Of a stretch of DNA of 64,000 nt, positions 2,539 to 2,658 are shown piece by piece (position 1 is the stretch's first letter; each line of letters starts with the position of its first letter). The stretch is from Escherichia coli 042. GTDB lineage: Bacteria > Pseudomonadota > Gammaproteobacteria > Enterobacterales > Enterobacteriaceae. Where the stretch lies: NCBI RefSeq assembly GCF_000027125.1, contig NC_017626.1, one strand, 5' to 3'. The position numbers were made by a program, and so were the translations under genes. The notes under the pieces are model-generated. The model was not told the DNA's origin, searched no databases, and worked only from the letters and a program-made list of their open reading frames with translations.

Positions 2539-2658
2539 CAGAACCATCGCCTCTCTGTGGTCCCGGTCATCATGACCGGGACCCGGACCGGCGCAACGGA
2601 TCTTCAACGCCACATTCGCTGGCATTAACAATAACATGATATTCATCACGGAGTGACT

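Follow-up and report, generated by a model that had tools for sequence, protein, structure and literature searches.

A conserved stem-loop at the 3' end of the Ag43 gene flu is read through within the agn43-yeeR-irmA operon of Escherichia coli

Ag43, encoded by flu (agn43), is a major phase-variable adhesin and biofilm factor, and IrmA, encoded by the last gene of the same operon, is a UPEC vaccine candidate. Between these genes, shortly after the flu stop codon, the RNA can form a hairpin that has the stem of an intrinsic terminator and lacks its U-tract. The question that this locus raises is what such a structure does at a place where transcription is known to carry on into the next gene. 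We analysed a 64-kb stretch of E. coli DNA, all of which is referred to here as the window, together with flu/cah loci from genomes and metagenomes. The hairpin is a conserved 3'-UTR stem-loop of the flu/cah (Ag43) family; in the allele carried by the window it is internal to the agn43-yeeR-irmA operon, and it is read through.

A stable hairpin without a U-tract

The original prediction placed a perfect GC-rich hairpin 21 nt after the flu stop codon, and direct reading of the letters bears this out. The sequence GGTCCCGGTC-ATCAT-GACCGGGACC occupies window positions 2559-2583 (in full, GGTCCCGGTCATCATGACCGGGACC), and its stem begins at the 21st base after the TGA stop codon (2536-2538), beyond a 20-nt spacer. 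It is best drawn with an 11-bp stem and a UCA loop rather than with 10 bp around ATCAT, as the innermost A-U also pairs (2559-2569 with 2573-2583, leaving a loop of 3 nt); eight of the 11 pairs are G-C. The core hairpin folds at -21.0 kcal/mol (z = -4.6), an energy that was not reached by any of 200 shuffles. An imperfect extension consists of four pairs beyond a bulged U (UCUG/CGGA) and four outer pairs (CGCC/GGCG) around the core. The prediction also held that this is not a canonical intrinsic terminator, which agrees with the lack of a U-tract: the 12 nt that follow the stem (CGGACCGGCGCA) contain no T, and no terminator was called when positions 1500-4000 were scanned.

Hairpins of this quality are rarer by chance than they are in the window. 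We simulated 64-kb sequences from a first-order Markov model that kept the dinucleotide transition frequencies of the window and tallied perfect stems of at least 10 bp, counting once per stem and loop length; the mean was 0.5 per simulated sequence, as against eight entries, corresponding to four distinct hairpins, in the window. Two of the other three distinct hairpins are the hisL attenuator and the yeeX terminator. The flu hairpin itself is a single-copy sequence, with no further copy in the 64-kb window at up to three mismatches; we considered and rejected a REP/BIME identity, given this single copy and given that, among the matches listed in E. coli genomes, all lie at flu/cah 3' ends.

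Two perfect hairpins elsewhere in the window can be described briefly. One, with a 13-bp stem and no U-tract, lies at 10225-10253 (CAATGAGGGTTGCCGGGCAACCCTCATTG); in MG1655 the counterpart, with another base at the centre of its loop, forms the 3' end of yeeX on the minus strand, and there Term-seq 3' ends fall 2-4 nt past the stem, a local precedent for U-less stems that define RNA ends. Another, with a 10-bp stem, is TGCCGGTGAA-ACCCTC-TTCACCGGCA at 7725-7750, within an ORF for a RadC/JAB-domain protein (7498-7989).

The coordinates of the features around the hairpin are collected in the table. RefSeq loci that are 100% identical to the upstream gene carry the annotation agn43. For YeeR, IrmA and the DUF905 protein we relied on the RefSeq annotation of near-identical loci, because an NCBIfam search returned no family for any of the three. 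The window is not K-12 DNA, yet in an alignment it is identical to K-12 (MG1655p locus) across the flu-yeeR junction, and its YeeR matches K-12 YeeR at 507 of 507 residues; the K-12 protein has 510 aa and is truncated after residue 507 by a deletion that also took irmA. The hairpin sits between the flu stop codon (2538) and the yeeR start codon (2659), that is, between cistrons of one operon, and the genes 3' of the terminator that ends this operon encode DUF905, DUF932, antirestriction, RadC, DUF987 and CbeA/CbtA proteins.

Table. Features at the flu-yeeR-irmA locus, in window coordinates
Feature	Position	Strand	Remarks
flu/agn43, 3' part (Ag43 autotransporter adhesin)	1..2538	+	NCBIfam auto_Ag43, E = 3e-292; stop codon TGA at 2536-2538
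Extended imperfect stem, specific to type A	2548..2593	+	Bulged U at 2558; -34.1 kcal/mol, z = -6.1
Match of MG1655 Term-seq 3' end	2552	-	7 nt past the hairpin in the minus-strand direction (...GGGACCACAGAGA)
Core hairpin	2559..2583	+	11-bp stem, loop UCA; present in 126 of 129 flu/cah 3' flanks; compensatory and G.U changes
U-less tail	2584..2595	+	CGGACCGGCGCA (TTTTACTTTCAG in type B); left boundary of the yeeR-irmA module
yeeR, full length	2659..5175	+	838 aa; ATG at 2659; GGAG at 2650-2653
irmA	5251..5706	+	151 aa; 150 of 151 residues identical to RefSeq 'IrmA family protein'
Canonical intrinsic terminator ending the operon	5731..5769	+	12-bp stem at 5731-5759, then TTTTATTTAT; -21.7 kcal/mol, z = -7.2

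Two further observations concern the neighbourhood of these genes. At about 2629-2630 (GGCATTAAC|), 29 nt before the yeeR start codon, independent rearrangements in three loci share a breakpoint: an IS66-family insertion in TUM1226, and a deletion of the 5' part of yeeR in AVS0456 and in ST131 strain 5506. The arms of the irmA terminator (AGCCTCTGTCAC...GTGGCAGAGGCT; 5731-5759) resemble those of the flu hairpin (AGGCCCCGGTCA...TGACCGGGGCCT; 2559-2583, and 3120-3146 in locus L002), and most of the differences between them affect both sides of a pair; the two hairpins could be diverged duplicates of one terminator, or the resemblance could be due to chance.

Two allele types around one stem

Alignment of flu 3' flanks across alleles had been suggested as a check on the hairpin. 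As the anchor of a scan for such flanks we took the final 30 nt of flu/cah coding sequence, such that sampling was unbiased with respect to the 3' flank itself; an 18-nt anchor was too unspecific in viral contigs, and the 30-nt anchor was used instead. The resulting 129 flanks comprise 120 metagenome loci, previously collected genome loci, and the window. The hairpin is kept in 126 of them, and in about half of flu/cah alleles it belongs to a terminator that does have a T-run. The 126 flanks fall into two types. Type A (67 loci), to which the window and K-12 belong, has a tail beginning CGGAC and no T-run; its first recognised downstream gene is yeeR in 56 loci and irmA without an intact yeeR 5' end in six, and no gene was recognised in five, two of which are short flanks. 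Type B (59 loci) has the tail TTTTACTTTCAG, and DUF905 is the first recognised downstream gene in 58. Its stem is lengthened to 12 bp by a flanking A-U pair, and the scan called this hairpin as a terminator (-25.3 kcal/mol). The remaining three of the 129 loci carry an O157-type cah followed by a dynamin-family gene, and their flank is unrelated. Both types are common in complete E. coli genomes, with the type A junction present in 2187 of 5426 (~40%) and the type B junction in 1962 of 5426 (~36%); among the matches listed in these genomes, the yeeR 5' region is never apart from a flu 3' end.

Comparison of the two types separates the hairpin from its surroundings. The hairpins are identical at 23 of 25 positions, both differences falling within one pair, and they share the loop and the position relative to the stop codon, whereas the 20-nt spacer is only ~30% identical (a hand count from the alignment) and the tails have no significant similarity; the end of the coding sequence is conserved. 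The type B sequence that follows the hairpin (TTTTACTTTCAGGGAGCAACAGATATGCCGGGTT...) is instead homologous to the window from position 5760 onward (TTTTATTTATCAGGAGAAAACAGATATGCCGGGTT...), with none of 2000 shuffles scoring as high. This is the T-run, ribosome-binding site and DUF905 start that lie behind the irmA hairpin. The two island types therefore differ by a 3.2-kb block, window positions 2584-5759, which starts with the base next to the flu stem and takes in the whole irmA stem, up to its final base. The yeeR-irmA module in effect occupies the space between a terminator stem and its U-tract. Two other likenesses were considered and rejected. A GG.GCAAC.GAT match in a MAFFT alignment, which might have been a vestigial DUF905 leader after the flu hairpin, is equalled by 29% of 2000 shuffles, and the resemblance of the yeeR ribosome-binding region to the DUF905 leader is not significant (9.8% of shuffles score as high).

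One locus combines the two types. A 4-kb contig binned as an Oxalobacter MAG (L147), and probably mis-binned, carries an E. coli-like flu 3' end in which a type B spacer (TAATCAGGTCACTCCCCTTCA) is joined to a type A stem and to a tail that starts CGGACGGGGG. Recombination between the allele types therefore occurs around the hairpin.

Variation within the stem is concentrated in a few pairs. Pair 1 is G-C in 89 loci and G.U in 37; pair 2 is G-C in 124 and G.U in two; pair 3 is U-A in 64, C-G in 59, C.A in one and U.C in two; and pair 8, all of whose variation lies inside type A, is G-C in 96, G.U in 19 and A-U in 11. The central loop base is C, A or T. In the 24 distinct sequences, 98.5% of cells are paired, as against at most 54.5% when the partners are slid. 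Two pairs have changed on both sides and three pairs include G.U, and none of 500 shuffles reaches the observed covariation score. The hairpin thus has the compensatory changes across homologues that mark a conserved structured RNA, arising from few independent events; within type A alone the covariation is not significant. The tail sequence CGGAC is invariant in all 67 type A loci, and wobble changes account for the variation of the extension pairs among the ten distinct type A sequences, except for two G.G mismatches in the outer helix.

These changes also bear on the strand and the molecule in which the hairpin acts. Every frequent one-sided change yields a G.U wobble in the flu-sense RNA. 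Because the same changes would produce an A.C mismatch in an antisense RNA or in a symmetric DNA site, the pattern favours a hairpin that acts as RNA on the flu-sense strand, with the caveat that the frequent one-sided changes are all C-to-T on the plus strand, such that strand-biased mutation could mimic selection for wobble pairs.

Transcription across the junction and a proposed role

Published experiments indicate that the hairpin is read through. In the work of Moriel et al. on the operon (PMC4807369), RT-PCR products from an oxyR mutant of EC958 demonstrate cotranscription of agn43, yeeR and irmA, a constitutive promoter placed ahead of flu drives IrmA, and an insertion downstream of agn43 abolishes IrmA. 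The same authors report that irmA was not found to be cotranscribed with genes further downstream, in agreement with the terminator at 5731-5769. A keyword search of the two operon papers (PMC4807369 and PMC9431211) found no mention of the hairpin. Induction falls across the junction. The oxyR mutation in EC958 increased agn43 121-fold and irmA 12.9-fold (PMC4807369), and deletion of gcvB in K-12 NCM3722 increased flu 63.6-fold and yeeR 4.6-fold (PMC8614746). If yeeR or irmA are also transcribed from basal promoters, such ratios of fold changes exaggerate the attenuation, and PMC9431211 describes a promoter of irmA's own in EAEC 042. A genome of the ST131 clone to which EC958 belongs has a 5'-truncated yeeR after the A-U variant of the hairpin, and Rho polarity in untranslated RNA could be the source of the EC958 ratio with no need for a role of the hairpin.

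Window positions were converted to MG1655 coordinates by adding 2072120, an offset that is based on flu ending at what we take to be 2074658 in MG1655 and that agrees with the placing of the printed 61-nt string on the window. Mapping of 3' ends by Term-seq had been suggested as a second check on the hairpin, and the published MG1655 data (Adams et al., PMC7815308, supplementary file 1) do contain one curated 3' end here, on the strand opposite to flu (minus strand, 2074672), in LB at an OD of 0.4 and in a second condition. It lies near the calling threshold, with about 24,000-27,000 reads compared to lowest listed minus-strand values of ~23,000 (PMC7815308). These tables list no plus-strand 3' end at the flu hairpin, which is uninformative either way, since the outcome hinges on the flu expression state of the cultures.

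The minus strand has a possible source for such an end. A sigma-70-like site (GTAACA, 18-nt spacer, TATCAT) lies on this strand at 2665..2636, and the antisense RNA predicted from it, ~78 nt long and opposite the yeeR leader, folds at -35.7 kcal/mol (z = -3.4). It is possible that the hairpin palindrome forms the 3' end of this putative, hitherto undescribed RNA.

We propose that the role of the stem depends on what follows it. In type B, where flu is the last gene of the transcript, a U-tract directly after the stem forms with it a canonical intrinsic terminator. In type A, where the U-tract is missing, the stem cannot efficiently release RNA polymerase; transcripts begun at the phase-variable flu promoter therefore extend into yeeR and irmA and stop at 5731-5769. 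The retained stem then probably serves as a barrier to 3'-to-5' exonucleases, for example PNPase and RNase II. Were the transcript cut or prematurely terminated downstream, a protective hairpin would be left at the end of the flu segment, which would survive longer than the distal one, and this longer life would contribute to an induction of flu far above that of yeeR or irmA. There is precedent for parts of this scheme: in E. coli, transcript 3' ends that exonucleases have trimmed are marked by stem-loops lacking U-tracts, and a switch of terminator type through changed U content downstream of the stem has been proposed on statistical grounds (Dar and Sorek, PMC6061677). On balance, we lean towards the view that the terminator stem has been kept, although read through, as a shield for the 3' end of the flu mRNA. 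The published ratios (63.6 versus 4.6 in PMC8614746; 121 versus 12.9 in PMC4807369) fit a more abundant upstream segment, with irmA's own promoter and the truncated yeeR as confounders. Weak attenuation is probably an alternative or an addition to shielding as a contributor to the step-down, and the share that we would assign to the hairpin is correspondingly provisional. The original prediction of an RNA-stabilising or partly terminating role thus stays plausible: read-through, which in combination with a lack of conservation was to count against it, is documented (PMC8614746 and PMC4807369), but the hairpin is conserved in 126 of 129 flanks, with compensatory changes.

The step-down might instead be transcriptional rather than an effect on stability. 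In that case the hairpin would be a leaky terminator or attenuator that causes pausing or partial release despite the missing U-tract, possibly helped along the 120-nt untranslated gap by Rho, NusA or NusG; we consider this unlikely. It would account for the 9- to 14-fold lower induction beyond the junction, the stem matches that of a genuine terminator in strength, and inefficient intrinsic terminators that are backed by Rho have been discussed by Dar and Sorek (PMC6061677). Yet established models of intrinsic termination require a weak rU:dA hybrid, and the GC-rich tail (CGGACCGGCGCA) offers no T in 12 nt. With respect to Rho, there is a mild excess of C over G just downstream (a ratio of about 1.35-1.5), which makes for a weak rut signature, but the ~65 nt of unstructured untranslated RNA before the yeeR start codon is short for Rho loading, and the table of bicyclomycin-sensitive 3' ends in PMC7815308 lists no plus-strand site here. 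Read-through is also robust enough for a flu-linked promoter to drive IrmA (PMC4807369). Alternatively, the stem may be a neutral relic of an ancestral flu terminator that lost its function in this allele when yeeR-irmA was inserted, or when the U-tract was lost. We regard this as improbable. The module boundary does coincide exactly with the 3' edge of the stem, covariation within type A is not significant, and polymorphism in the hairpin is lower than in its flanks by only about half, the flank value being inflated by breakpoints. Against this, the stem is intact in 63 of 67 type A loci, with single mismatches in the other four; the adjoining spacer has diverged to ~30% identity between the types (by the hand count); the series G-C to G.U to A-U at pair 8 arises inside the type A lineage; and the CGGAC tail that extends the helix is invariant.

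Two other readings have less to commend them. RNase III might cut the interrupted duplex of ~19 bp (2548-2593), thereby parting the flu mRNA from the yeeR-irmA mRNA and leaving a stabilising 3' hairpin on flu, as at the early intercistronic sites of phage T7. The extended helix, interrupted by an internal loop and a bulge, is broadly similar to such sites, and it is located between the cistrons of a proven operon. The substrates of E. coli RNase III, however, usually provide about two helical turns of duplex. The continuous duplex here falls below that length, and some type A variants lack an unbroken outer helix; we consider processing by RNase III very improbable. The suggestion in the original prediction of a relic recombination site at the flu/yeeR junction is correct insofar as the 3' edge of the hairpin is the exact point at which yeeR-containing and yeeR-less islands diverge, but we found no support for a site of the recombinase type. 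More generally, we give almost no credence to a DNA-level element, in which the palindrome would be a protein-binding or recombination site at the island-module junction. The palindrome is perfect, island-type homology breaks at its edge, and the mosaic contig is evidence of recombination around it; against this, one-sided changes are frequent and are wobble pairs on the plus strand only, such that a symmetric DNA site, or a minus-strand RNA, would have an A.C mismatch in 58 loci. The second boundary of the module is at a different hairpin with no common core sequence, the window contains one copy of the palindrome and no adjacent recombinase gene, and a pattern scan of one genome per species found it in no other Enterobacterales.

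Returning to the proposed role as a shield for the flu mRNA, we note that it can be predicted from the allele of the hairpin (a stem with its U-tract, or the stem by itself) whether the flu ON/OFF switch also governs yeeR and irmA, which bears on the reading of expression data and on the annotation of flu operons. With both states segregating in one species, the locus is a natural example of terminator function changed solely by the sequence 3' of a conserved stem. We also suggest, tentatively and with more doubt than conviction, that a cassette such as yeeR-irmA, with its own terminal hairpin, landing between a terminator stem and its U-tract represents a general route of operon growth. If so, a single terminator would be split into a read-through hairpin and a displaced terminator, the phase-variable flu promoter, controlled by OxyR/Dam, would at once drive the new genes, with a lower dosage built in, and the reverse deletion would restore a working terminator.

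Comparison with known elements

The hairpin does not belong to a described RNA family or to a dispersed repeat. An Rfam search of positions 2000-3200 at a permissive threshold returned only chance matches to eukaryotic and archaeal families, and no Rfam family matches the hairpin. A scan for the hairpin pattern in one genome per species gave no match in other Enterobacterales; the matches were only unrelated hairpins, actinobacterial or otherwise of high GC, and one E. coli-like contig that is probably mis-binned, and the hairpin is therefore not a widespread repeat. The 25-nt pattern matches in high-GC bacteria (loci L138-L146 and L148-L150) come from Streptomyces, Mycobacterium/Mycobacteroides, Gemmatimonadetes, Acidiphilium and others. 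Six of them carry the exact type B form, GGCCCCGGTCATCATGACCGGGGCC, and the rest differ at one to three variable positions; several of the Streptomyces matches adjoin the 3' end of an apparent tRNA gene and are flanked by gaa...ttc. A very stable stem seems to have been reused convergently here, and homology is the less likely reading.

Stabilising hairpins between the cistrons of polycistronic mRNAs are well known, for example the REP hairpins between malE and malF and the intercistronic stem-loops of the Rhodobacter puf operon. Like these, the flu hairpin is a stable structure just after a highly expressed proximal cistron, with distal cistrons expressed at a much lower level; unlike the malE-malF hairpins, it is single-copy, specific to flu loci and not a REP sequence, and its likeness to such stabilisers would be one of analogy. 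The stem is homologous to that of the type B flu/cah terminator, the two differences in 25 nt amounting to one compensatory pair, and it has the GC-rich stem of ~5-14 bp and the short loop of such terminators. What separates it from them is the U-rich tract (~5 or more U in 8 nt), which is absent from the window allele and present in type B, and the fact that transcription is known to proceed into yeeR and irmA (PMC8614746 and PMC4807369). The U-less protective stem-loops described by Dar and Sorek (PMC6061677) have the same combination of terminator-like energy and geometry with no U-rich tail. Their mapped 3' ends lie a few nucleotides past the stem, as does the one at the flu hairpin, which is on the minus strand only and near threshold, and they are found in terminal 3' UTRs, whereas the flu hairpin is internal to an operon. 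The locus reveals no new mechanism; its biology is ordinary, and it illustrates a known kind neatly. By analogy, the flu hairpin in this allele would work not as a canonical terminator but most like the U-less protective stem-loops and the intercistronic stabilisers.
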